Positions 1-15,921 of a stretch of 30,172 bases of DNA are shown here, one piece after another (the first letter of the stretch is position 1; each line of letters begins with the position of its first letter). The translations under genes and the position numbers were made by a program. Location of the stretch: IMG/VR virus record IMGVR_UViG_3300005573_000937, positions 1-30,172 of that record; one strand, given 5' to 3'. The notes beneath the pieces are model-generated. The model ran no database searches. It saw only the letters and a program-made list of their open reading frames with translations, and was not told the DNA's origin. This DNA is from a virus. Its lineage: Duplodnaviria; Caudoviricetes.

Positions 1-698
1 TGCATCTGATCCCAGGTGGCATTGTCGATCATGTCAGCGAAGGTCAGGATGCTCGGAATCTTGGCGTTGTCCTTGCCAAAGAACTCAGCGTTCCACCTCT
101 GCATCGCCAGGTCGCCCGCCGCCACCGTAGCCAGGGATTCGATCGGCGACAGGCCGATAAATGGATTGAGCGGGTGAAAGCGCTTGAAGTGCACGATCTG
201 CCAAGGGGGCAGCATGAGCGCCTGGCCATGGCCATCATTGAACTCATAGCCCTTCACGTACATGCGCCCATCAGGTACCGGCCGGACCTGATGACTGGGC
301 AGCAGCCAGAGCTCGTCCGGCTTCTGGCCTTCACCCGAGGCGTTCACGTACCAGTAGGCGTTGCCGGTAAGAGCACGATAGGCGAATGTCCCTACCAGGA
401 ACTCGAACCGCGACATCAGCGGATTTGGGTGAGCAAGGAGGAGCTCGAATGGATGATTGGTGATCTCCTCTTCGTCCTCAGCAACCAGCCGGCGCACACT
501 GAACGCCTGGCTGGCAGCGGCTTCGGCAACTGTATCAACAGCGATCGCCACCCAGGACAGCCGCTGGTACAGCTCAGATTGCGCCTCCGGCAATTGATAA
601 TCCGGCAGGCTCCAGCGATAGGCATCGGCCTGGCGCAGGATCGGTTCCGGGTAGGCCGGCTTCGCCTTGGTGCGCAGCAGATCAGCGATCAGTGCCAC
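1..698 (-). CDS. Phage portal protein (HK97-like), N-terminal part, truncated by window edge
   Basis: Not in ORF track. Manual translation from GTG at 698 is open to the edge and contains HPFELLLAHPNPLMSRFEFL, LTGNAYWY and IVHFKRFHPLNPFIGLSPIE, typical portal motifs. Lies downstream of TerL. Confidence 0.9.
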   Translation of the reverse strand, partial: MALIADLLRTKAKPAYPEPILRQADAYRWSLPDYQLPEAQSELYQRLSWVAIAVDTVAEAAASQAFSVRRLVAEDEEEITNHPFELLLAHPNPLMSRFEFLVGTFAYRALTGNAYWYVNASGEGQKPDELWLLPSHQVRPVPDGRMYVKGYEFNDGHGQALMLPPWQIVHFKRFHPLNPFIGLSPIESLATVAAGDLAMQRWNAEFFGKDNAKIPSILTFADMIDNATWDQM

Positions 699-837
699 GT
701 AATGCCCTCAATTCCACAATCACTACCAGGAATACACCAGCCGCAATGACAGCCGCCGGCACCGATACCAGAGCAATGCCAGCAACAATGGCGGCCACGC
801 CGACGTATTCCAGGGCGTCGTACCATCTCTCGCTCAT
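682..837 (-). CDS. Small 51-aa membrane protein between terminase and portal
   Basis: Manual translation MSERWYDALEYVGVAAIVAGIALVSVPAAVIAAGVFLVVIVELRALRGTDR; ATGA overlap with the TerL stop; hydrophobic. Confidence 0.7.
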   Translation of the reverse strand: MSERWYDALEYVGVAAIVAGIALVSVPAAVIAAGVFLVVIVELRALRGTDR

Positions 838-2063
838 ATGAACGCCACCAACTCTGCCGCCGCTGGTTGCAGCGCCGCCTTGAGCGCCAGGGCGCGAGCA
901 ATGACCGTGTCGTCATGCAGCCCTTCCGGTGCGCTGTAGCTGCTCCTGCCAGTGACCGCGCTCACTCTGCGTTCGTAGGCCTCCAGCTCCCCAGTCCATA
1001 CCGGGTCCGGTTGCCACTGCACCTGGCCCTGCTCGAACGCCAGGGCCAGCGATTCAATCAGCATGCTCTTGGTCGTCGCTGTCGTCTGGAAGCCGCGCAC
1101 CGGCAGACCATCACGTTGCAGCACCTCTATGATCGGATCGCCGATGCTGTTCGACTCGGCCAAGATCAGGCTCGGCTGCCAGCGATTAGCCAGAGCCTGC
1201 AGCCGGCCGCGCTGGACGACGTAATCAATTTGGTTGAACCGGTCGCGCGCCACCTCCCGCTGGCAATCAGCGCAGACAAGGCTGATCGCCGTAAAGTCCT
1301 CTTGCTTGCCCCAGTCCACACCGGCCACGATGCGGTGGCCGCGATGTTCCTCAGGGCTGCTGAGCGGCGCCTGCAGACAGGCAGATAGATTGCGGAAGAC
1401 ACTGCCTGCGCCTTCGATGAACTCGGCCAGATACTCTTGGCGAAATACGTCCTCGGGCAGATCGCGGCGAGCACTCTCGATCTCAGCCGGGTCAATGAAC
1501 GGATTGGCCGCTGTTGGAAAAGACCAACTTTGCCAGTCGCCCCCTTCGAGACCGCGTTGGTAATGCCGCCAGAACCAATTGCGGCCCCGAGGTGTACTGA
1601 TGAACAAAGCGCCGCCCTTGCGATCCGACAGGGCCGGCCGCAGCGCTTCCTGCCAGGCGTCCTCGACCACAAACGCACACTCATCCACGACGACGAAATC
1701 CAGGCCCTCACCCCGCAGGCTGTCGGGATCATCAGCCGATCGTACCTGCACGCTACCACCGCCCAGGAATGTCACCATCATGTCGCCATCGCGGATCGCC
1801 GCCCCGGGGAGCTGTGCCGCAAGCTGACGGATAAGCCGCCAGCCAACCGCTGCCACTTTGTAGGTCGGCGCCACCCACCAGGCACGTCCTTTCTGCAAAG
1901 CAGTGACAATGCAGAGCACTGCGCCGAGTCTGGTCTTGCCCCAACGGCGACCACATGCCAGGACGCGGAATCGCGCTGTGCTATCGCGCACCTCGCGTTG
2001 CCCGGAATGTAGAGGCGGCAAGGTGATCTCAATCAGTTTGCTCCGGCCAGCGGATGACAACAT
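834..2063 (-). CDS. terL: Terminase large subunit
   Basis: Walker A GRRWGKT, LRGEGLDFVVVDE (Walker B), ISTPRG coupling motif, nuclease GVDWG and HDDTVIA. Exact start uncertain (2036-2063). Confidence 0.95.
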   Translation of the reverse strand: MLSSAGRSKLIEITLPPLHSGQREVRDSTARFRVLACGRRWGKTRLGAVLCIVTALQKGRAWWVAPTYKVAAVGWRLIRQLAAQLPGAAIRDGDMMVTFLGGGSVQVRSADDPDSLRGEGLDFVVVDECAFVVEDAWQEALRPALSDRKGGALFISTPRGRNWFWRHYQRGLEGGDWQSWSFPTAANPFIDPAEIESARRDLPEDVFRQEYLAEFIEGAGSVFRNLSACLQAPLSSPEEHRGHRIVAGVDWGKQEDFTAISLVCADCQREVARDRFNQIDYVVQRGRLQALANRWQPSLILAESNSIGDPIIEVLQRDGLPVRGFQTTATTKSMLIESLALAFEQGQVQWQPDPVWTGELEAYERRVSAVTGRSSYSAPEGLHDDTVIARALALKAALQPAAAELVAFI

Positions 2064-2370
2064 CTAACCCGCCAGACATATTCACGTCGGTCTCGTTGCG
2101 CGGCGGCCCGTCCACCTGGCCGTACAGCCAGCGCACCAGTTCAAGCCAGTCCTGGCCGGTCATCGGGAACTCTATGCCATTGGGCAACTGCACAACTCCA
2201 TTCATGATTGCCTGCCACAGCGCTGTTCCCAACCAGCGCTTGGCCGCCATGCGCTTGCCGTTGATCTCAATAGTCTTCGACCCGGCCTGCTCCAACAGGC
2301 GGGTGAGGGCCCTATTTTTCTTTGGTCTACCCCGGGGGTTGCCGGATTGACCCTTTTGCCAAGCGCCCAT
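2029..2370 (-). CDS. terS: Terminase small subunit (DUF5681-like N-terminus)
   Basis: N-terminal WQKGQSGNPRGRPK motif; immediately upstream of and overlapping terL. Confidence 0.8.
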   Translation of the reverse strand: MGAWQKGQSGNPRGRPKKNRALTRLLEQAGSKTIEINGKRMAAKRWLGTALWQAIMNGVVQLPNGIEFPMTGQDWLELVRWLYGQVDGPPRNETDVNMSGGLDVVIRWPEQTD

Positions 2371-2399
2371 CTGATGCCTTCTGTAAAGCAGACAAAGTT

Positions 2400-2705
2400 T
2401 TACTTCTGACCGTCATCATCCAGCTGCCATACGGGGTCATGGCCAAGCTCGGTGATTTGATTGCACAACAGCTTGATGCCCTCGCGCAGCGTAGAAATGA
2501 CCGTCTTCTGCCGCTGCACCTCGGCCTCCAGTGCTGCCACCCGCTCCTGGAGGGGCTTCAACAGCGCGAGGACTGTCTGCGTGATTGCCGCTGTCGCCTC
2601 CCCCTCCGCTTTGCGCCGATTGGCCAAAGCAACCGCTAATGCCGAAAGACCTGTCACGACTGCGAGGATGACTCCGGCATCAAGGTCCATAAGGCGGCTA
2701 GCCAC
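2400..2705 (-). CDS. Membrane-anchored coiled-coil protein (lysis-associated?)
   Basis: N-terminal hydrophobic helix followed by heptad-like LQERVAALEAEVQRQK; overlaps the holin-like gene. Confidence 0.55.
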   Translation of the reverse strand: MASRLMDLDAGVILAVVTGLSALAVALANRRKAEGEATAAITQTVLALLKPLQERVAALEAEVQRQKTVISTLREGIKLLCNQITELGHDPVWQLDDDGQK

Positions 2706-2946
2706 GGACCGCCTTCTGGCCGCTGTAGAGGCCGGCAGCCGCCAGGCCCGAAAGAAGTCCCGCCATCTCGACCTGGAGCCAGGTGCCAGCGGCAGGTGAG
2801 TCCAATTTGAACGCGGTTGCTAGTAGCAGCCCGAGGCCCACGGCCAACGGCGCTGCCCACCGCGAGCTGAGGCCAGAGTTCTTGGCCAGCTGGACAACGG
2901 CTATGATCACCACAGCCGCCGGCACCCCATAGATAACCAGGTCCAT
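2698..2946 (-). CDS. Holin-like protein
   Basis: 82 aa with about 3 hydrophobic segments, GLLSGLAAAGLYSG and a basic C-terminus; RBS AGGAG. Confidence 0.7.
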   Translation of the reverse strand: MDLVIYGVPAAVVIIAVVQLAKNSGLSSRWAAPLAVGLGLLLATAFKLDSPAAGTWLQVEMAGLLSGLAAAGLYSGQKAVRG

Positions 2947-2961
2947 ATATCGCTCCTAACA

Positions 2962-3031
2962 GAGAGTCGGCCCTACATACATTATACAAGGCCGACCCCC
3001 GAATTCCGTCCGAATTGAAACTCAATTGAAA
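2962..3031 (-). promoter_or_regulatory. Putative late promoter (TATAAT) with inverted and direct repeats
   Basis: Minus-strand TATAAT (2981-2986) inside the inverted repeat GTCGGCC/GGCCGAC (2966-2972/2990-2996). No canonical -35; AATTGAAA occurs twice (3013-3020, 3024-3031). Confidence 0.55.
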
Positions 3032-3036
3032 ATTGG

Positions 3037-3261
3037 TCACTCAAGTTCTTGCATTGCGACCACCTGCCAGCCATCTACATCGCGATAGATCGGCAGGACC
3101 CGGCTGAGGCGGCAGAGAATACGGTAGGCACCGTCTTCGCTCAGGTGCAGAATCATCGCCGCCTCCTCATGTGAGATGCATTCGCCGTGGGCCAGCCACC
3201 AGGTCAGGATAGCTGCCCGTTCAACCGGGGTTTCCGGGTCCTCGCCTGGCAATCGCATCAA
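3037..3261 (-). CDS. Small HTH protein, possible late-gene activator
   Basis: ISHEEAAMILHLSEDGAYRILCRL is HTH-like; last gene before the late operon. Confidence 0.55.
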   Translation of the reverse strand: MMRLPGEDPETPVERAAILTWWLAHGECISHEEAAMILHLSEDGAYRILCRLSRVLPIYRDVDGWQVVAMQELE

Positions 3262-3767
3262 CCCTCCTGACGCCTCCGTGCAGCAGGAGCGGATCGCATC
3301 AGACCCACCTCGATCTCGACCCCTGCTGTCGTGGCATCCTGATCCAATGTCACTATCAAACTGCGCACTTGATGGTCGTCTTCATAGACAATCCCGTTCA
3401 TCCCATCGAGGCAGGCTTTGGCGAGATTATCGCAGTCGGCCCGGGCGGGGGCGTGGCAGAAACGCAGAATGACATAGACTGGCTCAGCAGTGCATTGCCA
3501 ACCCTGAACCAGGATTGCCTGCCGTGCCGTCCAGGCCAGAACCTGCTCGAATGCTTGCGTCCGGGCGGGCGTATAGACGTGACCGCCGCGTCCCAGTCTA
3601 GGCCGGGCCTTGGGAACCGGTTTGGCGTGGACCGTGAACCGCAGCGGCCGCACCGGTGTAAGACCTTCTATCACATCCTGCAGGCTGTCGAGTTCACGCA
3701 GAAGGCGAGCCCGCTCCACAGTGCATATAGCCAACTCCTCCTCAGGCGTGCCGCGCACAACCGGCAT
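3258..3767 (-). CDS. rusA: RusA-family Holliday junction resolvase
   Basis: PVPKARPR, DCDNLAKACLDGMNGIVYEDDHQV catalytic motif. Confidence 0.92.
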   Translation of the reverse strand: MPVVRGTPEEELAICTVERARLLRELDSLQDVIEGLTPVRPLRFTVHAKPVPKARPRLGRGGHVYTPARTQAFEQVLAWTARQAILVQGWQCTAEPVYVILRFCHAPARADCDNLAKACLDGMNGIVYEDDHQVRSLIVTLDQDATTAGVEIEVGLMRSAPAARRRQEG

Positions 3768-4489
3768 CAGCAGTTACCCTGCCGCTCTTCGCCACCGTTA
3801 CCGGGAGGCATGTAACACATGGTCTGGTTGGTGAACTCGTAGTAAGGCGGGTAGTAACCCCAAAACACCTGCCGTATTCCGGGTGTTACCAGCCGCTGCG
3901 TTTCTGGCGTCACTGGGATGGATCGCTGCGGCACACCGGCAACAATGACACTCTTGTCCTCGCTCACCTCCTCCACTTCCCATCTGAGAACCCGACCCCA
4001 ACCGTAGACACGCTTCTTGCCAATTGCCGCGATCGTCGCCAACAGGTCTTTGATAGCAGCAGCATCACCAACTGCCCACCAGCGGACCCAGGGCGCAACA
4101 CGATAGAAGACTGGCATGTGGTAGGCCTTGTAGCGCCCCTTGCTGGTCTCGATCCGACTTACAGCAACATCCAGGAGGTTGGTGTGCTTGCCCGAGTCCT
4201 CACGCTTGTTCCAATAATCGCGGCCCTCAGCGAAAGGCCGGCCCCACTCAGCAAACGAGCAGGCGTAATAGCGATACTCACCGTCATAGACCATCAGCAG
4301 GGGGAGCGTTGGCGCCATCATCTCTCTCGAAAGGGCAGCCAGCGAACCCTGTCCAGGGATGCTTGCCTCTGGCTGGCCATTGAACTGGCGCCGGCACGCC
4401 TCGTAGAGCAGTATGCCGTCGAGCGGCAGATACGGGTCAGAGATAACGCCGCAACGGAGCCAGGCAGTAATGCGGATCGGTCTAAACAT
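3767..4489 (-). CDS. csf3: Type IV CRISPR-Cas Csf3 (Cas5 family RAMP)
   Basis: LPLDGIL N-terminal motif, YYACS, G-rich loop IGKKRVYGWGRV, C-terminal RSIP...PPYY; clustered with csf2/csf1. Confidence 0.88.
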   Translation of the reverse strand: MFRPIRITAWLRCGVISDPYLPLDGILLYEACRRQFNGQPEASIPGQGSLAALSREMMAPTLPLLMVYDGEYRYYACSFAEWGRPFAEGRDYWNKREDSGKHTNLLDVAVSRIETSKGRYKAYHMPVFYRVAPWVRWWAVGDAAAIKDLLATIAAIGKKRVYGWGRVLRWEVEEVSEDKSVIVAGVPQRSIPVTPETQRLVTPGIRQVFWGYYPPYYEFTNQTMCYMPPGNGGEERQGNC

Positions 4490-5282
4490 AGATCGCCAGC
4501 TTCGGGAATTCGGCTACCAGCCGATTCCACAATCCTGGGTCGAGACGCTTCAGATAAGCGTAGCGGCCAAAGCCAACGGCAGCGGCACCGAGAACTGGAG
4601 CGATCCTCATCTCTTCCCGCTTTAGCCCCAATGCCGCCATCTTGTCGTATGCCGGGTTGTACGGTACCTGGAACGTGGCCAGGTAGGCCCAGATATCATC
4701 GACGCTCCAGAAAGCCAGCGGGCAGAGATGCCAGATGCCGTCCTCCTGGCAGAAATAGAACTCGCCCTTACGCAGAGCATTGAAATGCCGGCCAGTGCTT
4801 TCGTCTGCCCGCAGGCCAATTGCAACGGTCTCCAGGCTGAAGCGCTGGACAAACTCGGCTGAGGGCTCCTGGATCAGATGCTGGCCGAAATTGAACTCCA
4901 GGTCCGGCGTGCTAGTTGGGTGGCCCCAATAGCCACCCTGGCGGCACATTTCGAGCAGTGACGGCTTGGCAGCTATCACTGTGACGTTGGCGGTGGCGGC
5001 AATGAACTCGTAAGTGTCGCCAAGCTGGGCACCATCATCGAAGAACGCCGCCGGCGCCTCGGGGACAATCGAGCGGACAAGATGCAGCAGCACCGTGCTA
5101 TCCTTGCCGCCCGAGAAGGCGACGCCGATTGGGCCTGCCAGGGCAGCTTTTTCAATCAAACGCTTGGCCCGTTCGACCCTGCGCCTGAAAGAAGCAAGCT
5201 GCCCCAGCAAGTAGTCCGCCTTGCGGACTACTTCTCCTGCGGCCGCTTCTCGGCCATATCTCACCTCCTCATTGCATAGCAT
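4482..5282 (-). CDS. cysH: CysH-like PAPS reductase family protein (type IV-B accessory)
   Basis: PP-loop AFSGGKDSTVLLHL, GLRADES, PLAFWSVDDIWAYL, PYNPAYD; lacks the C-terminal ECGLH motif of metabolic CysH. Confidence 0.9.
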   Translation of the reverse strand: MLCNEEVRYGREAAAGEVVRKADYLLGQLASFRRRVERAKRLIEKAALAGPIGVAFSGGKDSTVLLHLVRSIVPEAPAAFFDDGAQLGDTYEFIAATANVTVIAAKPSLLEMCRQGGYWGHPTSTPDLEFNFGQHLIQEPSAEFVQRFSLETVAIGLRADESTGRHFNALRKGEFYFCQEDGIWHLCPLAFWSVDDIWAYLATFQVPYNPAYDKMAALGLKREEMRIAPVLGAAAVGFGRYAYLKRLDPGLWNRLVAEFPKLAIYV

Positions 5283-6234
5283 TCAGGAGCTCCCGGATGG
5301 CAGCAGCATTGTCGGACAGGTGCTTGTCGTAGGCCGCGCCAGCCGGCAGGGCTACCTGCGTACCCTGCGTTTTCAGCCGTGGGTTGATCTCGCACCAATC
5401 GAACTGCACGGCAATCTTGCCCATCCCGACCCGGCTCATGCCGCCGATGTATGGCCGCTTCGAAAACACTGCCAGACAGGAGAGAAAAGCTTCGTATTCG
5501 AGTTCGTTCAGGTCATGCAGAAGGATTTCCCAGTAGAACTCGCTGCCGGCGGCAAAGGTCTCAACGAAATAGCGCATCTGCTGGTGCTCGCCCACGGAAT
5601 CATCTGCCACATTCTCGCCCTGGCGCTGCTTCTCCCGTTTCGCGGCCGCTGACACTTCGAGAAGGTGCCGAACCTCAGGAGCAATCAGTAAGCGCAGATT
5701 CTCGTTCTTCTCGTCGTCGCGCCGGGTATAAGCCTCTTCCTGAAGCATTTCCCAGACGGACCGGTCCTTGTTGGCGAACCGATCCGGGACGATCAAGGCC
5801 GTCTCTCGGCAAAGGGGGAACAGTTTGCCGACTGTAAGCTTGCCCTCCATGATCTGGTTCCCCATTGCACCGCCAAATACAGAAACGAGCGGGATCAGGC
5901 GGCGGAGCTCACGGGCAGCATCAATATCCAGGCCGCGATCGCCAACCTTGGTAAGGGCACCACCAGAGAAGAGAAAGTAGAAGGCCGGCAAGGGCAGGCC
6001 ATGCACTTCCCCTGTCTCCTCGTCCACGCCATAGCCGAGCCGGCGGCACATGTAGAGCATGCCGCAATCGCGCAGCTGGCCACGAACACTGTTGCCGGAG
6101 ATGATCGGGATTTCCTCGATCCCGTCGGGGGTGACGACCTTTTCACGCCGCAGTTTGGCGTTGATCCCGAGCGTCTCGCCGATATGAGAAATGCTAGACA
6201 GAGCGGTTACAAGACCCTCAAACTGGTAATCCAT
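5269..6234 (-). CDS. csf2: Type IV CRISPR-Cas Csf2 (Cas7 backbone)
   Basis: ALSSISH, PIISGNSVRGQLRD, LFSGGAL, PLVSVFGG, G-rich loop IGGMSRVGMG. Start placed at ATG 6234 behind a GGAG RBS. Confidence 0.92.
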   Translation of the reverse strand: MDYQFEGLVTALSSISHIGETLGINAKLRREKVVTPDGIEEIPIISGNSVRGQLRDCGMLYMCRRLGYGVDEETGEVHGLPLPAFYFLFSGGALTKVGDRGLDIDAARELRRLIPLVSVFGGAMGNQIMEGKLTVGKLFPLCRETALIVPDRFANKDRSVWEMLQEEAYTRRDDEKNENLRLLIAPEVRHLLEVSAAAKREKQRQGENVADDSVGEHQQMRYFVETFAAGSEFYWEILLHDLNELEYEAFLSCLAVFSKRPYIGGMSRVGMGKIAVQFDWCEINPRLKTQGTQVALPAGAAYDKHLSDNAAAIRELLNAMQ

Positions 6235-6658
6235 TACCATCTCCTTCCTGCCAGAATGCATCGTCGGCGATCTCGGCATCGTCCCATTCATCCATCTCAG
6301 CGGCAGCCCGTTCGGCCCGTTGTGCCTTACGTTCTTCCGACCAGACTCGGACCTGCAGCACCAGCGTGGTCGCTTCGTCGCGGAACAAACGCAGCAGTTG
6401 CCTCTCCTCGGCAGGGGAGAGACTGTTGAGCAGTGTCTCGATCTGAGAGCGCTGGGCCTTATTCGTGCCCAGCAGTGGGACCTGCATCTTAGAACAGAGT
6501 GAGTTGACGAATCGGCTCAGGCTGTTCGTGTACGCCGCGCTGCGCACGTTGTCCGTCAGGATGCCCCAATACTTCAGCCGCTTCTCGCCCCACACCGACC
6601 AGTCCATGCTCAGGTGTACTGCCTGAATCAGTCTCGCTGCCGTCTCTTCCAATTCCAA
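6218..6658 (-). CDS. cas11: Type IV-B small subunit Cas11
   Basis: Small helical protein between csf1 and csf2; TTG start at 6658 with AAGGAGG RBS; YWGILTDNVRSAAYTNSLSRFVNSLCSKM. Confidence 0.75.
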   Translation of the reverse strand: MELEETAARLIQAVHLSMDWSVWGEKRLKYWGILTDNVRSAAYTNSLSRFVNSLCSKMQVPLLGTNKAQRSQIETLLNSLSPAEERQLLRLFRDEATTLVLQVRVWSEERKAQRAERAAAEMDEWDDAEIADDAFWQEGDGNGLPV

Positions 6659-7319
6659 CGTCTGCCTCCTTCTGGGCCAGAAATAGAGCCAAGGCGAATA
6701 ACGATGAACCACGCCACGGTCGGAGTGATCCTTCGAGCACCCGCCAGGAGCTCAAGCCAAACTTCACAATGCGATGGGCGAGATAATCCCCAGTCTCAAT
6801 TTCGTGCTTCGAAAAGAGCGTGAGGAGTGAGCACATTGCTGCGAGCAACGACTCCAGTCGTGCCATATCCGGCACCACCCGCTGCTCCTCAAATTGCCAT
6901 AGGCCAGGCTGGGCACGAAAGAGCAGGTGTTTTTGGCCCGAATCGGCGATGACAGCCAGGGCCGCCTCAGGCAATAAGGCGACCATGCGTTTCTTCTCAG
7001 CCTTCGAGAGTGCATACCATTCACCAGCCACGACAAAGTGGCTGTAGTTGCGCATGCATTGCGGCTTGTCCTTGCCAAGGCGAGTTTGCAGAAGAGCGCT
7101 GCGCTCGTCGGCACAGAAAGCACAGGCCGGGCAGACCCAGTCGCTTTGCCACTGCCGCGCCTTGTCGTGGTCGGTGAACGTCACCTTCACGAACTCGCGA
7201 TAAGGCACCGCCCGGCCGGGCAGGACAGCACCACAGAGCCAACATCTACCCTCAGCCGGAACCGCAGCGGCAACTTCGGGCTCACCAGCAGCTCGATAGA
7301 GCAATTCAGTCGCCGTCAT
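6489..7319 (-). CDS. csf1: Type IV CRISPR-Cas Csf1 (Cas8-like large subunit)
   Basis: Zn-finger CWLCG...FTDHD...VCPAC, SGQKHL motif; first gene of the csf cluster; low-complexity tail ending QLTLF. Confidence 0.85.
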   Translation of the reverse strand: MTATELLYRAAGEPEVAAAVPAEGRCWLCGAVLPGRAVPYREFVKVTFTDHDKARQWQSDWVCPACAFCADERSALLQTRLGKDKPQCMRNYSHFVVAGEWYALSKAEKKRMVALLPEAALAVIADSGQKHLLFRAQPGLWQFEEQRVVPDMARLESLLAAMCSLLTLFSKHEIETGDYLAHRIVKFGLSSWRVLEGSLRPWRGSSLFALALFLAQKEADVGIGRDGSETDSGSTPEHGLVGVGREAAEVLGHPDGQRAQRGVHEQPEPIRQLTLF

Positions 7320-7512
7320 TACTGCCGGCTCTCACTACTGGGATCATGCCATTCTCAAGCTGAGCAATGCGCTCCTGTGCGGCTTCGAGCGCGTGAGAGA
7401 GGCGCGTGATGCGGCCCTTCAGCGCCGCGATTTGGAGATACTGCATCTCGATGATCGTGCGCTGATTATCCAGCCGGTCCTCAAGAGTGAGAGGAATCTC
7501 AGATTTGTCCAC
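7306..7512 (-). CDS. Hypothetical coiled-coil protein
   Basis: 68 aa, RBS GGAGG, overlaps both neighbours. Confidence 0.6.
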   Translation of the reverse strand: MDKSEIPLTLEDRLDNQRTIIEMQYLQIAALKGRITRLSHALEAAQERIAQLENGMIPVVRAGSNDGD

Positions 7513-7795
7513 TTACTTCCTCCTCTCCATCCAGGCCGTCGCGACGTGCAATCTGCCCACAGCCAAGCCAATTCGGATTCCACTTCTGCACCGCCACCCG
7601 GCCCGGGTGGTGTAAGCGGCGGAGTTCGTGTGCAATCTGGCATTTCCAGATGGGGTGTTGATCCGAATCGCGCACTATAGATACGTTCTCTAGCCAAGTG
7701 CAATCTCTGCATACGCCGGTCGCGAACCCAAATGCCCGGTGCATTCGAGCAATGGCCTCAGGTTCCTTACCCATTACCTGCTTCCTCCCGGCCAC
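7499..7795 (-). CDS. Hypothetical Cys-containing protein
   Basis: CRDC...C...C pattern; fits the operon packing. Confidence 0.55.
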   Translation of the reverse strand: MAGRKQVMGKEPEAIARMHRAFGFATGVCRDCTWLENVSIVRDSDQHPIWKCQIAHELRRLHHPGRVAVQKWNPNWLGCGQIARRDGLDGEEEVSGQI

Positions 7796-7798
7796 ATA

Positions 7799-8233
7799 TC
7801 ATGCATGCTCCTCACGCCACACCTGCACGGCCTTGCGCAGGGCCTTGGCCGCCCTCTCGGCCGCATGGGCTTCACGTTGCACATCTTCTTCGTCCACGAG
7901 TCGACCCAGCTCGTGACAGATCGATGCATGCTGGTACTGATACTCCCGTTTCTCCCAGCGCTTGTCTGCATCTGCCCACTCGAGCACTGCGTCAATCAAT
8001 GCCTTAGTGTCCGAGTCTGGCTCGTAGATGAGGATCGGTCGCTCGACGATCCGCTCAACCGGTTTCTCTGCCTTGTAGAGGCCTGCCTTGTAGGCAGCGA
8101 GGTCAGCGCGGGCCAGCCCGACCTCTACCTGGAGCAGCCCAATAAGCTCATGCGCTTGGATAACGTGATCACGCACCCAAGACAGACTGACAGAATCGAG
8201 AATATCACCAGGCTTATCAACGTTGTCGCTCAT
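7799..8233 (-). CDS. Hypothetical protein
   Basis: Start reassigned to MSDNVDK (8233) behind GGAG; helical and charged. Confidence 0.55.
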   Translation of the reverse strand: MSDNVDKPGDILDSVSLSWVRDHVIQAHELIGLLQVEVGLARADLAAYKAGLYKAEKPVERIVERPILIYEPDSDTKALIDAVLEWADADKRWEKREYQYQHASICHELGRLVDEEDVQREAHAAERAAKALRKAVQVWREEHA

Positions 8234-8465
8234 GCTTACTCCATTTGGGCTCTTGAGCCTCATGCTTCTTCTGTTCCCGTATCCACGCCACCTCTTGTGC
8301 CGCTTTACATATCGCCCGTGACTGGGGATTGCACACATCCTTGCACTCATCCGCCCTGCCCCACATCTCCCAGCCAAGCGTCAGCACGTGGCAGCCAGAA
8401 GCAACAAAGGCCTCGTAGAACTCGCGCAGTGCCCGCAGTTCTTGCTTTTTCCAATCCTTACCCAT
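8217..8465 (-). CDS. Hypothetical protein
   Basis: 82 aa directly after the clamp gene, overlapping the next ORF. Confidence 0.5.
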   Translation of the reverse strand: MGKDWKKQELRALREFYEAFVASGCHVLTLGWEMWGRADECKDVCNPQSRAICKAAQEVAWIREQKKHEAQEPKWSKHERQR

Positions 8466-8470
8466 AGCCT

Positions 8471-9652
8471 CTACTCCGGCACACGCCGGGGCGCCAGCAT
8501 GTATATGTGCTCGCCCTCGTGCAGCTGCGTTGCGCAGATACGGCCCAACGGCATGCCGCCACCGTCCACCAGGCCGATGCTCACGTGCTCACTCTCGACC
8601 GTGCCCAGGAACTCCAACAGCAATTGCACGCCGAGAGCGATCCTCGCCTGGTTCTCAGTGACAGCATCCACCGTGATTTCACACGAGCCCGTGCTCTCCT
8701 CGCCGCCGCTGAGCTTCAGCCCGCCGTCAGCACTCGGCCACTCAAGCCGCACCGAGCCATCTTTCGGCGCGACCTTATCAACGCGTTTGAGAGCGGCGAC
8801 GAGATCCGCCACAGCGACAAGACAATATGGCTGCATCAGCGGCAGGCTAAAGAAGTGCTGCCAGTTCGGATATTCCTCGGTGATCAATCGCGCCGTCACT
8901 TCGACGCGCAGATCAGCCTCACCATCACCCGTGATCTGTATCTTCGGTGTTTCCGTGTCAGCGAATAGGCTGATAGTGACGTCTCCCTTGCCGGCAAGCA
9001 CACGCTTTGCGGCCGCAATCGTCGGCGCCGGTACGGTGAAGGCGGCCTCGGAGATGCCAGGGGCGGGAATCACCGGCAGCGTCCGCGTGGCAATGCGGAA
9101 GTTATCCGCACCGACCAGACGCATCTCGTCGTTAGTGAGGACAAAGCGGACGCCGCTGAGGGCATTACCCAAGCTGGGGTTGCAGGCATACTCGACTTGG
9201 CCCAATGCGCGTTTGAACGCCGGCGCGGCTACCATCCATGTGCCGCGCCACTCCGTGACTGCTGGCGTCTGATAAGCGTCAATCCCGTCCGAGTCATCCC
9301 AGGACGCAGCCAGGCGGGCCTTGCCCCGGCCTGCCATGTAACTGAGCTCCAGGATAGATGGAGCCTCAGCGGCCACCTGGCCCTCAACGAACCCAGGGCC
9401 CAGCGCAGCAATCAAATCGCCGAACATGGGAGCGGCAAGCACGATCGCCCCCGTTTCTCTCTCACCCACGTCCGGTAATGACAGCACCCGCACACCAGTC
9501 TGGCCATCGGTGCCAGTCATCTCAAGCGTGCCGTCTGCCTGTACCCTGAGCAGCACTCCCGAAAGGGCGGGTATAGTCCGCGCCTTCCCGGCCACGGTCC
9601 GCACCGCCTTGAGCATGGCCAGTAATGTCTCTTGCCTGGAACTGAATCTCAC
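8471..9652 (-). CDS. dnaN: DNA polymerase III beta sliding clamp homolog
   Basis: 393 aa; TIPALSGVLL, MTGTD, LSGVRF, LVGADNFRIA, ARLITEEYPNW and C-terminal YMLAPRR match beta-clamp motifs. Confidence 0.88.
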   Translation of the reverse strand: MRFSSRQETLLAMLKAVRTVAGKARTIPALSGVLLRVQADGTLEMTGTDGQTGVRVLSLPDVGERETGAIVLAAPMFGDLIAALGPGFVEGQVAAEAPSILELSYMAGRGKARLAASWDDSDGIDAYQTPAVTEWRGTWMVAAPAFKRALGQVEYACNPSLGNALSGVRFVLTNDEMRLVGADNFRIATRTLPVIPAPGISEAAFTVPAPTIAAAKRVLAGKGDVTISLFADTETPKIQITGDGEADLRVEVTARLITEEYPNWQHFFSLPLMQPYCLVAVADLVAALKRVDKVAPKDGSVRLEWPSADGGLKLSGGEESTGSCEITVDAVTENQARIALGVQLLLEFLGTVESEHVSIGLVDGGGMPLGRICATQLHEGEHIYMLAPRRVPE

Positions 9653-9720
9653 TAGAATCTGCCTCCGCTTGCTGTTCTCGTCGGTGTCGGCTTGCTGACA
9701 CCCGCGCGACGGGGCCGGGA

Positions 9721-9872
9721 TTCTCGCAAACCTGCTCTCACAGCCCTTTGACGGTGTTCGCAGGTTTCTCGCAAGAATTCTCGCACGCCCCCCTTAAGTG
9801 GGGGGGGCGTGCGCGAATAACAATATTCCAATTCCCGCACGACCTTTGCGAGAATCTGCGAGAATGCGAGAA
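9721..9872. repeat. Candidate replication origin: inverted iteron array TTCTCGCA/TGCGAGAA
   Basis: TTCTCGCA at 9721, 9766, 9778 and TGCGAGAA at 9847, 9857, 9865 flank a 17-bp imperfect inverted repeat (9777-9793/9802-9818); directly after the primase-helicase gene. Confidence 0.65.
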
Positions 9873-11870
9873 TCATTCGCCCTCACCGACTTTCGAGTAA
9901 AGAAACGGGCTGTTTCGTGTGCCAGCCCCTTCTTGGCGAACTTTCCCGATTGCGATCAATCCCTTCAGGTCGTACTCGATGCTTCTTATCCCCGGCAGCG
10001 GCACAGCGGAATCAGCCGGCCAGGACTGCCGGATCGCCTTGCTTGTCACCGGCACCTTGCTGAGCAGGCTGAGGATCACTCGCTGCCTGTCAGCAACCGT
10101 TGCCTGGGCCTTCGTTCCCCTGACGGTGTAGCCTTCGTCGCCAAGCCCGATCACGACCTCGGCTGGTGTCTCCTTGAACCGGCTGAGGCCTAGAAGCACG
10201 CGCCTCGTGTCCTCGGGCTCTTCCGCCTGATAGCGGCCGAACTCCAGGATGATGTCTACGAATCCCGGCAGGGCCCCAGAGCCACGGGAGCTGCGCCCCT
10301 GGCCCATGGGCGCCTTGCTCGGGTGGTGAGCGACGAGGAGACTGGCGCCGGCTTCGGTGATGCGGTGGAACTCGACGATGACAGTGGTCATCATCGCCGA
10401 GTCGTTCTCGTCCTCGATCGGCGCCTGGCTGCTGAGCGGGTCCAGGATCACGAGATCGTACCCATTTGCGATGACGGCATCGGCTACGAAACGCATGAAC
10501 TGGCGCCAGGTCCGCAGGTCCGGTCGGCCGAGGAAGGGCCGGAAAATGAAGTGCACATTATCACTCAGGTCGAGCTCATCGCGGCGTTCGGCCCAGAGTG
10601 ACGAATGCTCTTCGGTGATAATGAGCACCTTCCCCCGTGCCAGCGGCATACCGCAGAACATGCCGCCTCGTTCCATCGCCTTCACTAAGTGAGTCAGAAG
10701 CGTGGTCTTGCCGCTCTTCCACAGTCCAACCAACTCGGTGACGGCGCCGCTGGCGAGGTAGCCCTCCCATATCCAGTTGACGTGATCACCGTTCGGGTCG
10801 ATCTGCGAGGCGGGCACGATCACCCAGCGCTCTGCCGGTTCGGGCGGCATCGGCGGGTCTTCGTCCGTCTCCGGGGTGACCGGCTCGGCGTCCTTGCTCT
10901 GACTGCCACCCACGGTCACCGTTGGCAGCCCTTCGATCGTCCAGGTGTTTGAGACCTTGGCCGCGATCCGCTTGTACTCGATCTCGGCCTGGCCATTGCG
11001 CCGGCCCGAGTACTTGTTGTACCCGAGGGCCTGATCGCGTTCCGCCAGGGCGGCGGCAATCAGGCTGGTGGTAGCGCCGGCAGCTCGCAGGGCCCGGCCG
11101 ATGTGGAACAGGGTCTCCGAACGGTCAATGGACTGCGCCTCGGGCAGCTCCTTTTCCTGGCCATCGGTGGCATCGATCACCCGCCTGCCTTCCCAAAGAG
11201 CCATACCCCAGGCGGCCAATCGTACCGGTGGTTCCGGTCCGGTAACCGTTGCTTCTGCGGCTGCCTCTAGCTCTGTTTGGGCCTGCATCCGGTTCTGTGC
11301 CATTTCCAGCAGCCAATCCGGCAGGGCTGCCGGCGGCACGTCGGCCGGATCGCCCTGTACTTCCCAGTCATAGCGAAATGAACTGGCATGCAGGCTCGGC
11401 GGGGCGACCACATAGGCACCTTCTGCCTGGAGATCAATGCCCTGCGCCAGTTTCAACGAGCGGAGTTCCACGCCCTCCGGGTAGCGAAAGAACCAGTGAT
11501 CACCCCCGCCGCCAGTCAAGCTGTGCATGGTTGGTGGCAGCTCACCATGCTCGCGTTCCAGGTCCCGCAGGCTGAAATCACCGCCGTGGCGCGGGTCCAC
11601 GTCGAGTGCGATCAGTCCAGACGCTCTGCCCAGGATGATGCCGATGTTCGCGTCAGGAACAGTCGCCCACCAACGCCGGATCGTGGCCTCGTCGGTCGTC
11701 GCGTCCTTGCGGCCGTGCGGCACAAGCATCCGGTGTGGATGCTTGCCGGCACTCTTGCAGTTATGCACGCCGCAGGCGCATTGCAGGCTGGTCTTGTGCT
11801 CGCCTCGCACCGGGAAGAGCGGGATCACGGGCCAGCCGCGCCGGGCATAACTGAGTGCCGCTTCGAGCAT
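9873..11870 (-). CDS. Bifunctional primase/polymerase (Prim-Pol) fused to AAA_25/RepA-like helicase
   Basis: AALSYARRGWPVIPL, GKHP, NIGI, LDVDPRHGG, YVVAPPSLH; Walker A GLWKSGKT, LVILDPL, HHPSK, SRGSGAL. Probable start MLEAAL at 11870. Confidence 0.9.
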   Translation of the reverse strand: MLEAALSYARRGWPVIPLFPVRGEHKTSLQCACGVHNCKSAGKHPHRMLVPHGRKDATTDEATIRRWWATVPDANIGIILGRASGLIALDVDPRHGGDFSLRDLEREHGELPPTMHSLTGGGGDHWFFRYPEGVELRSLKLAQGIDLQAEGAYVVAPPSLHASSFRYDWEVQGDPADVPPAALPDWLLEMAQNRMQAQTELEAAAEATVTGPEPPVRLAAWGMALWEGRRVIDATDGQEKELPEAQSIDRSETLFHIGRALRAAGATTSLIAAALAERDQALGYNKYSGRRNGQAEIEYKRIAAKVSNTWTIEGLPTVTVGGSQSKDAEPVTPETDEDPPMPPEPAERWVIVPASQIDPNGDHVNWIWEGYLASGAVTELVGLWKSGKTTLLTHLVKAMERGGMFCGMPLARGKVLIITEEHSSLWAERRDELDLSDNVHFIFRPFLGRPDLRTWRQFMRFVADAVIANGYDLVILDPLSSQAPIEDENDSAMMTTVIVEFHRITEAGASLLVAHHPSKAPMGQGRSSRGSGALPGFVDIILEFGRYQAEEPEDTRRVLLGLSRFKETPAEVVIGLGDEGYTVRGTKAQATVADRQRVILSLLSKVPVTSKAIRQSWPADSAVPLPGIRSIEYDLKGLIAIGKVRQEGAGTRNSPFLYSKVGEGE

Positions 11871-11956
11871 GTTCACTTCTTCAGCCACCAGGAGTGCGCT
11901 CCTTACTGGCAGGGGCGCGCGCTGGCATCCATCGGGTGACGCCAGCGCGCTGATCA

Positions 11957-12376
11957 TCAGAACGGCACGTCCTCAGACTCGACGTCCGCTACGACCGGGG
12001 CCGGCTTAGGTGTTGCCTTGCGCCGTGGTAGGCGGACCTTCTCAATGCGGTTGAACATCCCCTTGTCGGTGTCAGAGACCGAGACGTAGAGCATAACCTT
12101 TGTCCCAATCAGGGATTCCAGGTCGATCTCTTCACCCTTTTCCAGGGCTCGGCCGAGCATCCCTTCGACCCAGCCGCGCAGCTTGGCTTTGGGCGACATG
12201 GCTTTGCTGGCCAGGCCGCTCACCTCCGTGCCTCGGTTGTCCTCGTCGAGGAGCGAGAAAGTCATCTTGATGGTCGGTCCGAAACTCATTTCGAGCTCTT
12301 CGACTTTGGCGAGTTGGGCGGGGTATTCCCCCTCCTCAATCACCGTGTAATCCGTGGCGGTCAGTTTCATCGTCAT
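11957..12376 (-). CDS. Putative single-stranded DNA-binding protein
   Basis: Start MTMKL with AAGGAG RBS; IEEGEYPA motif, acidic C-terminal EDVPF; lies between nuclease and primase. Confidence 0.65.
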   Translation of the reverse strand: MTMKLTATDYTVIEEGEYPAQLAKVEELEMSFGPTIKMTFSLLDEDNRGTEVSGLASKAMSPKAKLRGWVEGMLGRALEKGEEIDLESLIGTKVMLYVSVSDTDKGMFNRIEKVRLPRRKATPKPAPVVADVESEDVPF

Positions 12377-12423
12377 TTTGTGCTCCTTTTGCCTTTTCCC
12401 ACTCTGGGTTTCGGCTTTTGGTG

Positions 12424-13104
12424 TTATCTCGCCCCGGAGTGATCCGGCCCGATCCGGTCCTCCGAGGCGCAAATCTGCTGATGCGGGCAGTAGTCGCACA
12501 GGATCGTCCTGTGGGCCGGGAATTCCCCGGCCTGGATACCGAGCCAGGCTAGCTTCATCGAACGCCAATGCCGCTCCAGGTACTCCTCTTCCACCGCGAT
12601 TGGCATCACCCGGCCCTGGATCGGGCCGTTGTTGCCACCAACCAGCAGGTGGAATTCCGCCCCGGTCGGTTCAATGCCGTTGACCTGACAGAGAAACCAA
12701 TACATCGCCGGCTGGAGCTCAGAGAGGGCACGCTCCAGCACCCAGTGCCGGCCGGAGGTCTTGATGTCAATGATCCGGCCGTCTTTCGTCAGGCAGTCCA
12801 GGTAACCCACCAGCGGCAGGCCAATGCCGGGCATCTCGCCACGCAGTTCCAGTTCCACTGCCGCTACCTCGGAGGGATGGACGGCGCCTTTCATGCGCCG
12901 ATACGTCTCCAGGTAACGGTATGTGCCGGCTACGGGCGGTTGATGCTCGCCTCGCCACCACGACTCGATTAGCCGGTGGATGCGCGTTCCCAGGTTCATC
13001 GCCCCGGTTGTCGGCTCTGCTAGACGGTCCAGGTAACGATAGCGCCAGCGACGCGGGCATTGCTGGTAGGTCTTGATGGATGAGGCGGACAGGTGATCGA
13101 TCAC
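12424..13104 (-). CDS. PD-(D/E)XK nuclease, RecB/AddB/Cas4-like with 4-Cys cluster
   Basis: HLSASSI..CPRRW, GTRIH, GYLD, IIDIKTS, QPAMY, CDYCPHQQIC. Confidence 0.88.
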   Translation of the reverse strand: MIDHLSASSIKTYQQCPRRWRYRYLDRLAEPTTGAMNLGTRIHRLIESWWRGEHQPPVAGTYRYLETYRRMKGAVHPSEVAAVELELRGEMPGIGLPLVGYLDCLTKDGRIIDIKTSGRHWVLERALSELQPAMYWFLCQVNGIEPTGAEFHLLVGGNNGPIQGRVMPIAVEEEYLERHWRSMKLAWLGIQAGEFPAHRTILCDYCPHQQICASEDRIGPDHSGAR

Positions 13105-13439
13105 TAGGCGGCCCTGCCGGGAACCTGGGCCAAGGGCCCACGCAATTCCTGAGCCAGGCGTGTCAGGCCACTTTCGACGGCAATGTTGGCCTGGACGCTC
13201 TCGTGCCAGGCACGCACGTCGCTACTGGCGCGGTCGCAGACTGCCTGGGCGCTTTCCACGATCTCGGCTGCCTCGGCCGGTTCGATTACGCCGTCCATCA
13301 GGGCGCTGCGCACAAAGCAAATCAGGAGCAGCGCGCTGTCATGCAGGTTCTTCGCTCGCTCCATGGCGCTCATCTCTTGGGCCGTATCGTCCAGGTGCAG
13401 ATCACTAATCCTTCTCAGTTCGCGTTCCAGGATTGTCAT
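13104..13439 (-). CDS. Hypothetical helical protein
   Basis: 111 aa, RBS GGAGG; ALMDGVIEPAEAAEI is reminiscent of phage CII-like regulators. Confidence 0.55.
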   Translation of the reverse strand: MTILERELRRISDLHLDDTAQEMSAMERAKNLHDSALLLICFVRSALMDGVIEPAEAAEIVESAQAVCDRASSDVRAWHESVQANIAVESGLTRLAQELRGPLAQVPGRAA

Positions 13440-13526
13440 CCCTGCCTCCGCATGTTATGCTTTGAGGACTGAGCGAAATCCGTTCTTGCCGGGGCTCTCC
13501 GTTGACGCGGAGAGCCCCGTTGTGTT
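13433..13526 (+). ncRNA. Candidate antisense sRNA unit (promoter plus terminator hairpin)
   Basis: TTGTCA(13433-13438)-17 bp-TATGCT(13456-13461) with extended TG, then hairpin CGGGGCTCTCCG/CGGAGAGCCCCG (13490-13519) followed by TTGTGTT. Confidence 0.55.
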
Positions 13527-13749
13527 AGCGGCTATCTGGCTTTTCCTGCTCTGCAGGCTGCTGCTTGAGCAGGGCAGGTCCTGAGTCTTCGTCCAATATC
13601 CACAAGGCAATGGTGGAAAGAGCGCACTGTTCCGATTCCACCATCCACCAGGCACAGTTCCGTCCGATGCACTCCCAGGCCGGCCAGGCCCCGAGTGGAT
13701 TCATCGCCATCCGCAGCGGGCAACGTCTCAGCATTGGCCGCCGGCTCAT
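13525..13749 (-). CDS. Hypothetical small Cys-rich protein
   Basis: CP...EC...CAWW...CAL pattern; ATGA overlap with the upstream gene. Confidence 0.55.
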   Translation of the reverse strand: MSRRPMLRRCPLRMAMNPLGAWPAWECIGRNCAWWMVESEQCALSTIALWILDEDSGPALLKQQPAEQEKPDSR

Positions 13750-14321
13750 GCTGGCACCTCGGTGATCTCACCTGTCTCGGCATCCACCCGACGCAGGAAC
13801 TCGCGCGTCTCCCGCTCAGCGGCATAATGCTCGCGCGTCCAGCGGGCGATCTCCTCTTCCGCAGCCTGGTCGGCTTCGAGCTGTTGTGTGGCTCTTTCCA
13901 GGTCGGAACTGATGACTGCCTGGGGAACCTCCTCTACCTCGACGCAAGCCGGCCGCAGAGCCTTGGCTGCCTGCTCGAACGCCTTTGTGTCCAGCTTCAG
14001 CAGCCGGAAGTGTTTGTTCTCGATCGCCCAGGCGATTGCCCGCTCCGGCTCGTAGTGTGTGCGGGCGACAAGCCGGATTGAGACGCCCGGAACCGTCTTG
14101 CGGATACCGGTCAGGCGGTACACCTCCTCGGCACTGTCGCGCACCGCCAGCTCCAGATCGCGGGCGCGATCGGCGAGGGACCGCTCTGCTTGGAGGAGTT
14201 CAGCATTCTCCCGGGCGAAAGCTTGGCGCTTTTCTTCCAGCATCTCGTGGATGCTGGCGGCTGAACGGCGGGCGTCCGCCAGAGCCAGAACGAGTGCGGC
14301 GATCTCTTTCTCGGTTTTCAT
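13746..14321 (-). CDS. Hypothetical coiled-coil protein (possibly Gam/Gp157-like)
   Basis: Start MKTEKE with GGAGGT RBS; long helical N-terminus, then PGVSIR; ends VDAETGEI. Confidence 0.6.
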   Translation of the reverse strand: MKTEKEIAALVLALADARRSAASIHEMLEEKRQAFARENAELLQAERSLADRARDLELAVRDSAEEVYRLTGIRKTVPGVSIRLVARTHYEPERAIAWAIENKHFRLLKLDTKAFEQAAKALRPACVEVEEVPQAVISSDLERATQQLEADQAAEEEIARWTREHYAAERETREFLRRVDAETGEITEVPA

Positions 14322-14527
14322 GCCACCTCCTTGAGGAGCGCGTTGATCTCCTCGATCTCGGCGATTGAGGCGCCCAGCTGCCAGGCTCGTTGTACCCAAT
14401 AGGCAGCCTGGCCCTCGACGAATTCCACGTCCGCCGCGTCCTCCGGCCATTTCAGGTTCTCGTAGGCCCAGATCAATTGCTCGGTCCAGTAACGGCAGGT
14501 TTCGAGAGCTTGCTCTTTCGTCAGCAT
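14318..14527 (-). CDS. Hypothetical protein
   Basis: MLTKEQALE..., RBS GAGGAG, ATGA overlap with the next gene. Confidence 0.55.
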   Translation of the reverse strand: MLTKEQALETCRYWTEQLIWAYENLKWPEDAADVEFVEGQAAYWVQRAWQLGASIAEIEEINALLKEVA

Positions 14528-14538
14528 GTCGCATCTCC

Positions 14539-14826
14539 TCAATCGGGCCGCTGGTAGCTACTCACTGCCAGGGCGCTCATCACCACGATGCCCACGAATG
14601 CTCCGACGACGAGACCGGCCAGAAATGCGATCATTCATCGCCTCCACAGCGCTGCTATGATTGCTCGGGTGAAGATCATCCCGAGCAGCAGAATCGCTGT
14701 CGCCAGACAGATCACCGCGATCACTATCTCCGTTCAGCCCTCCTTCGGCGGCCAGATGTCCCTGGCCGACAGCCACAAACTCACGAGCATTCCGAGGCCC
14801 AACAGGAGAATCTGCCATGTTGCCAT
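14539..14826 (-). CDS. Three tandem ~30-aa hydrophobic micro-ORFs (14734-14826, 14635-14724, 14539-14634)
   Basis: Each has a GGAG(G) RBS and a single transmembrane-like segment; below the ORF-track cutoff. Confidence 0.55.
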
Positions 14827-14940
14827 CTTCCGACCTCCGTAAGGCGATAAGCCGCACAATCTGCGGTGCGGCCTGAGCGACCAGGCGCAATCGCTGTGAC
14901 TGCGACAATGAAAAAGCCGCCAGCTGCCAGGTCTGCTCGC

Positions 14941-15219
14941 TCATGCGGCATCCTGACAGCGGCGGCTGGAATCCTTGCCGGTGATTGTAGAGGCGGGCCC
15001 TACGATAGTAGGGTTCTCGGCTAAAAAAAGAAGGATGTCATTCCAGAGGTCCGAATAACGAAATGCCAGGGCGCGGAGCACTTTCGGCCCTGGGCGACGC
15101 CTGCCAGCGACGATATGCGGCCAATAGCTGGCACTCAGCCCGAGGGCGCGGGAGAAATCACTGCGCGTTAGCCCCTCGGCGGAGCGTCGCTCATCGGCTT
15201 TCTCGATCAGACGGTTCAT
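14941..15219 (-). CDS. cro: Cro-like XRE HTH regulator
   Basis: GLTRSDFSRALGLSASYWPHIVAGRRRPG HTH; divergent from cI; first gene of the lytic operon; RBS GGAGG. Confidence 0.8.
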   Translation of the reverse strand: MNRLIEKADERRSAEGLTRSDFSRALGLSASYWPHIVAGRRRPGPKVLRALAFRYSDLWNDILLFLAENPTIVGPASTITGKDSSRRCQDAA

Positions 15220-15242
15220 CCGTCCTCCCCGTTCTCTATCCT

Positions 15243-15317
15243 CTACTATTGTAGTCCACTCGCCTACCATTTGTCAAGAGTCAACTTCAATCGTCCGACC
15301 TTGTGCTACAATCGTAG
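15243..15317. promoter_or_regulatory. Divergent lysis/lysogeny promoters with CTAC-N4-GTAG operators
   Basis: Minus: TTGACA(15272-15277)-18-TACAAT(15248-15253). Plus: extended -10 TGCTACAAT (15304-15312). Palindromes at 15243-15254 and 15306-15317 overlap each -10; a third lies at 15000-15011. Confidence 0.75.
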
Positions 15318-15353
15318 CGTGGCACTCTTGAGTATCAGTAGTCTCTAGGAACG

Positions 15354-15737
15354 ATGAAGATGACCAGGTTTGGTAACAGGTTACGGGAACTTCGGGAGGG
15401 GGCGCGGCTGACACAGCGGGAGCTGGCGGAGCGTGCCGGCGTGGATGAATCCTACATTGGCCACCTCGAAAGCGGCCGGCGCGGGCTGCCGTCGCTGACT
15501 GTACTCGACACGCTCAGCCGGGCTTTGGACTATCCGCTAGACCTATTGCTGCGCGATATTGGTGTGCGGCTGCCAGATCGGGGCGAACTGGAGGACTGGC
15601 AGGAAGAGGTGCTTAGGGCACTTGAGGCTCTTTCGCCTGAGGAACGAGCGCTTCAGATAGAGCAGATACGGCTGCTTGCAGCGGCTCGGAGAGAACAACA
15701 CCGTAGCGTCGCTGGAGGTCGAGGGCAATCCAAATAA
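15354..15737 (+). CDS. cI: CI-like XRE repressor without peptidase domain
   Basis: FGNRLRELRE..LTQRELAERAGVDESYIGHLESGRR HTH_3 motif; only 127 aa. Confidence 0.88.
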   Translation: MKMTRFGNRLRELREGARLTQRELAERAGVDESYIGHLESGRRGLPSLTVLDTLSRALDYPLDLLLRDIGVRLPDRGELEDWQEEVLRALEALSPEERALQIEQIRLLAAARREQHRSVAGGRGQSK

Positions 15738-15795: not shown

Positions 15796-15823
15796 TCTTG
15801 CACCTCGCCATCCAGGCCTGGAT

Positions 15824-15872: not shown

Positions 15873-15921
15873 TAGCCGAAATCGGTAAAAGGATTGCCGG
15901 AACCGGTAGTGGGAGGTCTCC

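Follow-up and report, generated by a model that had tools for sequence, protein, structure and literature searches.

Evidence for selection on a sliding-clamp-type motif in an overprinted Csf1 tail of a phage type IV-B CRISPR module

Introduction

The closest described relatives of the module reported here are the type IV-B CRISPR systems of Mycobacterium sp. JS623 (PDB 7JHY) and of Rhodococcus jostii RHA1 pRHL2. What type IV-B systems do is an open question in the literature (PMC8175902, PMC7937560). The solved type IV-B complex is bound to RNA, and Csf1 is not resolved in it (PMC7937560); the associated CysH-like proteins have been proposed to be ATP-dependent modifiers of nucleic acids (PMC8175902). 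Type IV-B systems borne by viruses have already been described (PMC10848311, 10.1101/780106).

The beta sliding clamp is located on replicating and newly replicated DNA (PMC9690074), and its clients, among them Pol II (QLGLF) and Pol IV (QLVLGL), carry a short binding motif with the consensus QL[SD]LF (PMC11139829, PMC9690074). The use of host clamps by proteins of mobile elements has precedents in phage MuC (PMC12867686) and in insertion-sequence transposases (PMC4549789).

The module that we describe lies in a stretch of phage DNA of 30,172 nucleotides (the whole stretch is called the window below) from IMG/VR virus record IMGVR_UViG_3300005573_000937, the completeness of which is estimated at 55%. 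It resembles the known type IV-B systems in its five genes and in its carriage on a mobile element. No array or Cas6 was found within the window. It differs from them in being phage-borne and divergent, with all three csf models scoring under their cut-offs, in having its cysH-like gene between csf2 and csf3, and in a 56-residue overprinted Csf1 tail with a clamp-type motif that is absent from seven named loci. The Csf1 tail resembles the clamp clients in presenting Q-aliphatic-x-L-F at the free C terminus of a segment predicted to be disordered; unlike them, Csf1 is the large subunit of a class 1 CRISPR system, its motif is written in the second frame of another gene, and the likeness is a match of sequence. 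With phage Mu C and Mor (PMC12867686) it would share the use of the host clamp by a phage protein beyond DNA synthesis, but MuC is a single transcription factor for which binding has been shown, whereas Csf1 is one of several subunits that make up a predicted ribonucleoprotein complex, with which an enzyme is associated. New here are a codon-level test of the motif with a natural control group and the finding that the motif co-occurs only weakly with phage clamps.

Materials and Methods

The query for homologs was an alignment restricted to the Csf1 core (that of the window and 35 short homologs), which does not select for tails. It yielded 80 loci from viruses, 80 from metagenomes, and 15 from genomes; one earlier locus and the window bring the total to 177, of which 159 have a complete core and a stop codon and fall into 108 clusters at 80% identity. 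A cognate cas11 is adjacent in 81 clusters, and 80 were kept after the truncated L110 was dropped. A second sample consists of the best 150 of 1,200 representatives from the core-only profile, less 23 without a complete core, leaving 127 proteins, some of which are perhaps cut at contig ends and five of which are shared with the 120 proteins listed for a tail-inclusive query.

The relaxed motif is Q-x-x-[LM]-[FL]. The published definition is Q-aliphatic-x-[LM]-[FL] or a six-residue form (PMC11139829). Null expectations for the overprinted tails come from 400 synonymous resamplings in which the Cas11 protein was fixed and the -1 frame was kept open. A quick tree of 98 of the 108 clusters, poorly resolved, was used to show the scatter of the overprint. 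From 75 named records found with Csf2, we took seven named loci: Skermania phage SPI1; plasmids of Rhodococcus jostii, Mycobacterium adipatum, Xylanimonas, and Rhodovastum; and two haloarchaeal plasmids.

Results

The window carries a large serine recombinase gene (16327-17838, plus strand; Pfam search) together with genes for a primase-polymerase, a RusA resolvase, and tail proteins (Pfam or ORF reading), a content from which we take the phage to be likely temperate. A small ORF placed divergently to the recombinase (15354-15737, plus strand) looks repressor-like by eye. Between a PD-(D/E)xK nuclease and the primase-polymerase lies the gene of a 139-residue protein (11957-12376, minus strand) that has a weak DUF669 match and an acidic C terminus, ...ESEDVPF, which resembles the tips of single-strand binding proteins. 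A promoter and terminator scan of the window returned no more than chance level. Contigs with related loci come from bins that mostly bear the labels Chloroflexota, Acidobacteriota, and Bacteroidota.

On the minus strand the genes run in the order dnaN, four small ORFs, csf1, cas11, csf2, cysH-like, csf3, and rusA, with gaps of at most 5 nt, and the module sits between replication genes on one side and rusA and terminase genes on the other. The csf1 gene (6489-7319) encodes the 276-residue type IV large subunit, which consists of a Cys-rich folded core (residues ~1-218) and a C-terminal tail; it matches TIGR03114 at E 1.4e-5 and 24.9 bits, under the cut-off of 140. In the AlphaFold model the core has a pLDDT above 90, and Foldseek matches the model best to 7XG1_A (E 2.2e-4) and 8RC3_G, both of them chains from type IV-A complexes. 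Downstream lie csf2 (5269-6234), which encodes the Cas7-like backbone subunit (TIGR03115, E 1.3e-16, under cut-off; by tblastn, 34% to Skermania phage SPI1 and 29-37% among 40 plasmid records listed), and csf3 (3767-4489), which encodes the Cas5-like subunit (TIGR03116, E 1.5e-12, under cut-off). Between them, the cysH-like gene (4482-5282) encodes a member of the PAPS reductase family (PF01507, E 5.6e-19) with an SGGKDS loop and no C-terminal cysteine, its last Cys being residue 187 of 266.

The small subunit gene, cas11 (6218-6658, minus strand, 146 residues), lies between csf1 and csf2 and begins at a TTG; an RBS-like AGGAGG (6665-6670, minus strand) stands 6 nt before this start, inside the end of the csf1 core. 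No match to a Pfam, NCBIfam, or PHROG family was found for Cas11, which aligns with the small subunits of plasmid type IV-B systems. Its family profile matches the Cas11 of 7JHY at E 2e-29, a match that is partly circular because the profile includes Cas11s of actinobacterial plasmids; Cas11c was also matched. With csf1 (weak), cas11, csf2, csf3, and a cysH-like gene lacking the C-terminal cysteine all recognizable by sequence, the module is type IV-B by gene content. No CRISPR array, Cas6, or DinG was detected by direct-repeat searches of positions 1-16000, Rfam and tandem-repeat searches across the window, and Pfam searches of 18 ORFs in a record that is 55% complete; neither an array nor an Rfam match within the window offers itself as a source of guides.

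DNA methylase genes occur near related loci in 7 and 5 of the 108 clusters (raw counts). A Cas6-like protein (PF08798, E 5.5e-24) is encoded near a type IV-B module at L047:8829-9365, and its family occurs in three clusters. In the haloarchaeal plasmids (L184:6707-8781 and L185:6864-8801), where no gene is annotated cysH, a DUF3440 gene comes after the type IV-like module, and in L185 a ParB-like gene comes next.

The Csf1 tail (residues 221-276; 6492-6659, minus strand) is read in the -1 frame over cas11, such that the third base of each cas11 codon is the first base of a tail codon. Given the cas11 start at TTG 6658, the overlap covers the first 170 nt of cas11. The protein ends ...EPIRQLTLF, and the stop codon (TAA, 6489-6491, minus strand) follows directly after QLTLF (residues 272-276; 6492-6506, minus strand), which fits Q-aliphatic-x-[LM]-[FL] and, with the stop, overlies the Cas11 residues FVNSLCSK. 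The overprint and its terminal IRQLTLF were thus correctly described in the initial annotation; its description of the tail as low-complexity is rejected, since the mean 12-residue entropy is 2.87 bits, near the 2.96 bits of the core. The tail is instead predicted to be a disordered linker, with a pLDDT below 50 over residues 221-253 and 255-261 of the AlphaFold model, and the motif would accordingly occupy the exposed kind of position that is characteristic of clamp clients.

Of the 80 clusters, 41 have a Csf1 that extends to the same point in cas11 and 39 do not; as far as the position of the motif, the -1 frame is open in 43 of the 80, where 2.9 would be expected. The proposal that homologs should be enriched for a terminal motif is borne out by the overprinted clusters: 36 of 41 carry the relaxed motif, whereas the 400 resamplings average 4.5 and never exceed 10; the motif is spelled in the unused frame in 4 of the 39 clusters without overprint. 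The motif lies at most 4 residues from the stop in 23 of the 41 overprinted clusters and at most 24 residues from it in all 41. Sequences that fit the published definition are found in 28/41 overprinted clusters versus 2/39 with the frame unused and 10/855 ends of other ORFs. The four top-scoring columns among those tested are the Q, L, L, and F of the motif (z 9.4, 9.6, 7.9, and 8.0), and its third position is variable (A in 10, T in 10, D in 8, and S in 7). Other tail columns also exceed the null, with z up to 6.9, which means that the null is too lenient and the stated probabilities too strong; the tail may hold further constraints beyond the motif.

Codon choice in cas11 under the motif points the same way. 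Valine is GTC in 25/25 cases (background 0.27), leucine is CTY in 24/29 (background 0.25), and cysteine is TGT in 32/41 (background 0.51), the last being a weak contrast with the 11/21 of the other clusters (p 0.047). The base that gives the Q is C in all 41 overprinted clusters versus 20/39 others, and the Cas11 cysteine itself is kept in 41/41 versus 21/39 without overprint. Third-base identity at four-fold sites is 0.31 past the overlap, 0.47 within it, and 1.0 at the Q position; as four-fold sites are saturated outside the overlap, inheritance without selection does not account for the motif. On this codon-level evidence, selection almost certainly maintains the terminal motif in the Csf1 frame.

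Tails of other kinds bear the motif as well. With the Csf1-Cas11 fusion L048 set aside, 26 other tails exceed 12 residues; 16 of these carry the relaxed five- or six-residue motif against 1.4 expected by shuffling, and 5 fit the published definition. Free tails that overlap no gene bear it in L036, L062, L067, and L081, as do, in L044 and L046, tails that overprint a divergent Cas11 in the other frame; several other tails end earlier inside cas11. In the second sample, 59 of the 127 proteins have no tail, and among the 68 tails the published motif occurs in 34 (1.1 expected by shuffling) and the relaxed motif in 54 (4.5 expected). The 120 proteins listed for the tail-inclusive query include 70 with a long tail, and 57 of these tails have the five-residue motif. 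Both the codon test and the second sample indicate that the motif is conserved independently of the surrounding sequence. In L048 (5859-7074), Csf1 and Cas11 are apparently fused in one ORF. A distant group (L050, L054, L059, L060, L062, L067, L081, and L176) has csf1 last, after csf2, csf3, and cysH, and three of its members have free tails with the motif.

The Csf1 motif is nevertheless an optional feature, and its generality across type IV-B is not supported: 40 of 107 clusters have no tail, the relaxed motif is present in 53 of 107, and it was found in none of the seven named loci checked, where the Csf1-position protein was assigned by gene order. With the tail missing in so many relatives and the motif in all seven, clamp docking by way of Csf1 would not be required by all type IV-B systems. 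In the tree, overprinted, tail-less, and other-tail forms are intermixed with 16 changes, at least five of them forced by well-supported branches, a distribution that fits an old overprint that has been repeatedly lost. In four loci (L083, L120, L138, and L033) a single stop breaks the tail and the remaining -1 frame is open to the motif position; these may reflect recent loss, read-through, or assembly error. Beyond that stop the motif is still intact in L083, L120, and L033.

A handing over of the motif to other subunits in tail-less systems is not supported as a rule, as neither the Csf2 ends (0/88) nor the CysH ends (0/73) carry it; Csf3 has a motif in 8/79, mostly a recurring NQMxLxL stretch. 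The Cas11 of the Rhodovastum plasmid ends in FQLELFEAA, with the motif on Cas11. Cas11 tails bear LF or MF in 8/38 overprinted, 8/25 tail-less, and 7/14 other clusters, that is, in 23/77 versus about 5 by shuffling, at least one of these counts lying inside the folded part, and fuller motifs (QDPLF, QLELF) stand on some of them (examples are L014, L020, L102, L120, L129, L146, and L186:3465-3935). Such tails may give the Cas11 filament a second contact with the clamp, present in multiple copies. No PCNA-type motif was seen by eye in the two haloarchaeal plasmid systems, and no clamp motif was found at other protein ends of the window among the 20 ORFs checked.

The clamp homolog that had been placed about 1.2 kb upstream of csf1 in the same operon is confirmed: a divergent DnaN-like beta sliding clamp of 393 residues (8471-9652, minus strand), with all three domains (PF00712, PF02767, and PF02768), ends 1,152 nt upstream of csf1 in the same closely packed minus-strand run of ORFs. 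Its model has a pLDDT of 82.7 and a TM score of 0.83 to solved clamps. Five such proteins were found, four of which form a close clade that includes the window's own (56-100%); the next match is at 24%. Segments that we take to line the binding pocket differ from those of two other phage clamps (for example, ADNFR versus TDSHR/TDSHK and YMLAPRR versus FLVMPVS). Among related virus records, the clamp gene is present in 4 of 48 (2 of the 16 near-complete), small counts that may be too low because they missed a putative clamp-like ORF recognized by profile beside the L038/L039 cluster. Three of the four records have a tail-less Csf1. A long or motif-bearing tail is present in 30 of the 48 records and a clamp in only one of those 30, the window's near relative, so a general co-occurrence of the motif with the phage's own dnaN, which the initial annotation suggested checking, is rejected. 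As the motif is independent of a phage clamp, the host clamp is more likely to be the general partner, and the phage clamp may be a local one.

Discussion

We consider it probable that the Csf1 tail peptide binds the beta sliding clamp. The match to the published motif in its residues, in the pattern of substitutions that it tolerates, and in its position is what suggests clamp binding; conservation of the motif, selection on it in the Csf1 frame, and its recurrence together support such a role well at the level of sequence. The reading of QLTLF as a beta-clamp-type motif is upheld in this sense, both by the published definition and by the pattern of conservation.

In the mechanism that we propose, QLTLF would dock into the pocket of a beta sliding clamp of the bacterial type, in all likelihood that of the host, and through the flexible tail the Csf complex would be tethered to phage DNA that is newly replicated and clamp-loaded. 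Because the clamp is present on replicating and new DNA (PMC9690074), a long tail would hold the complex there. The CysH-like enzyme would then likely act on nucleic acid at this clamp-loaded DNA; its retained SGGKDS loop and missing terminal cysteine agree with the proposal of an ATP-using modifier of nucleic acids (PMC8175902). The DNA methylase genes near related loci, as raw counts, speak for this reading, and the RNA bound by the solved type IV-B complex, in which Csf1 is not resolved, speaks against it (PMC7937560). Taken as a whole, a clamp tether combined with CysH-driven modification of new DNA seems to us evenly balanced between right and wrong, and that the output is such modification rather than transcription control is the more weakly inferred part.

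Several other explanations deserve to be weighed against a clamp tether that serves DNA modification. The motif might bind the clamp for the purpose of transcription control, the complex switching phage genes on or off at replicated DNA in the manner of MuC, whose two clamp motifs couple late transcription to replication (PMC12867686). Type IV-A works by a transcription block (PMC12669027), and here the module has replication genes on one side and rusA and terminase genes on the other; however, this account leaves the near-constant cysH-like gene unexplained, and the window offers no array or Rfam match as a source of guides, so that we judge it rather unlikely, if the most serious of the alternatives. 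A tail that acts as a competitor, filling clamp pockets and slowing host replication, would recall the lethality of overproduced MuC, which depends on its clamp motifs (PMC12867686). Csf1 is, however, a minor subunit of the purified complex (PMC7937560) and would thus make a poor sponge for clamps, and the window holds no obvious replicative polymerase of its own in a phage that is likely temperate; we regard this account as improbable.

The remaining two concern the peptide itself. It could be selected for a partner other than the clamp, be it Csf2, the CysH-like protein, or another host hub protein, since selection shows function and not the partner; upstream positions of the tail are constrained too, and short hydrophobic termini are able to serve other pockets. 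Against this, the pattern of tolerance follows the published clamp motif (Q fixed, Leu preferred at the second position, the third free, L or M at the fourth, and F over L at the fifth), and the motif turns up on different subunits as well as on unrelated linkers, which makes a different partner unlikely in our estimation. That QLTLF is a chance read-through of the conserved FVNSLCS of cas11 in a GC-rich gene, the refuting case named in the initial annotation, gains something from the window taken alone, where resampling yields the relaxed motif in 13% and an open frame in 9% of cases, and from the four clusters without overprint that still spell the motif. It is nonetheless at odds with the 36 of 41 clusters that carry the motif against 4.5 expected, with the drift of Cas11 at these very residues once the overprint is absent, and with motifs on tails that overlap nothing; three of the four latent cases, moreover, have a single stop in the tail and look like recent losses. 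A chance origin is very hard to credit.

Returning to the clamp tether, we put forward, tentatively and as a doubtful extension, that phage type IV-B systems are replication-coupled machines in which the motif was re-created several times (in two frames, on free tails, and on Cas11) and in which the CysH-like enzyme modifies new DNA, protecting or marking the phage genome. A search of the open-access literature, with subscription papers and supplements outside its scope, found no link of Csf1 or of type IV-B to the sliding clamp, in agreement with the view that a replication-coupled role for a CRISPR effector had not been described; the word "clamp" is absent from the main text of three papers on type IV-B (PMC8175902, PMC10848311, 10.1101/780106).

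A clamp-type motif under selection points to clamp-loaded DNA as the place where type IV-B acts, and it also suggests why little was learned from plasmid systems when these were expressed in a different host. The overprint further offers a clear example from nature of a functional linear motif in the second frame of an essential neighbor gene, where it apparently constrains the neighbor's protein. If true, the replication-coupled reading would be the first mechanism for type IV-B, that of a CRISPR effector repurposed as a clamp client.
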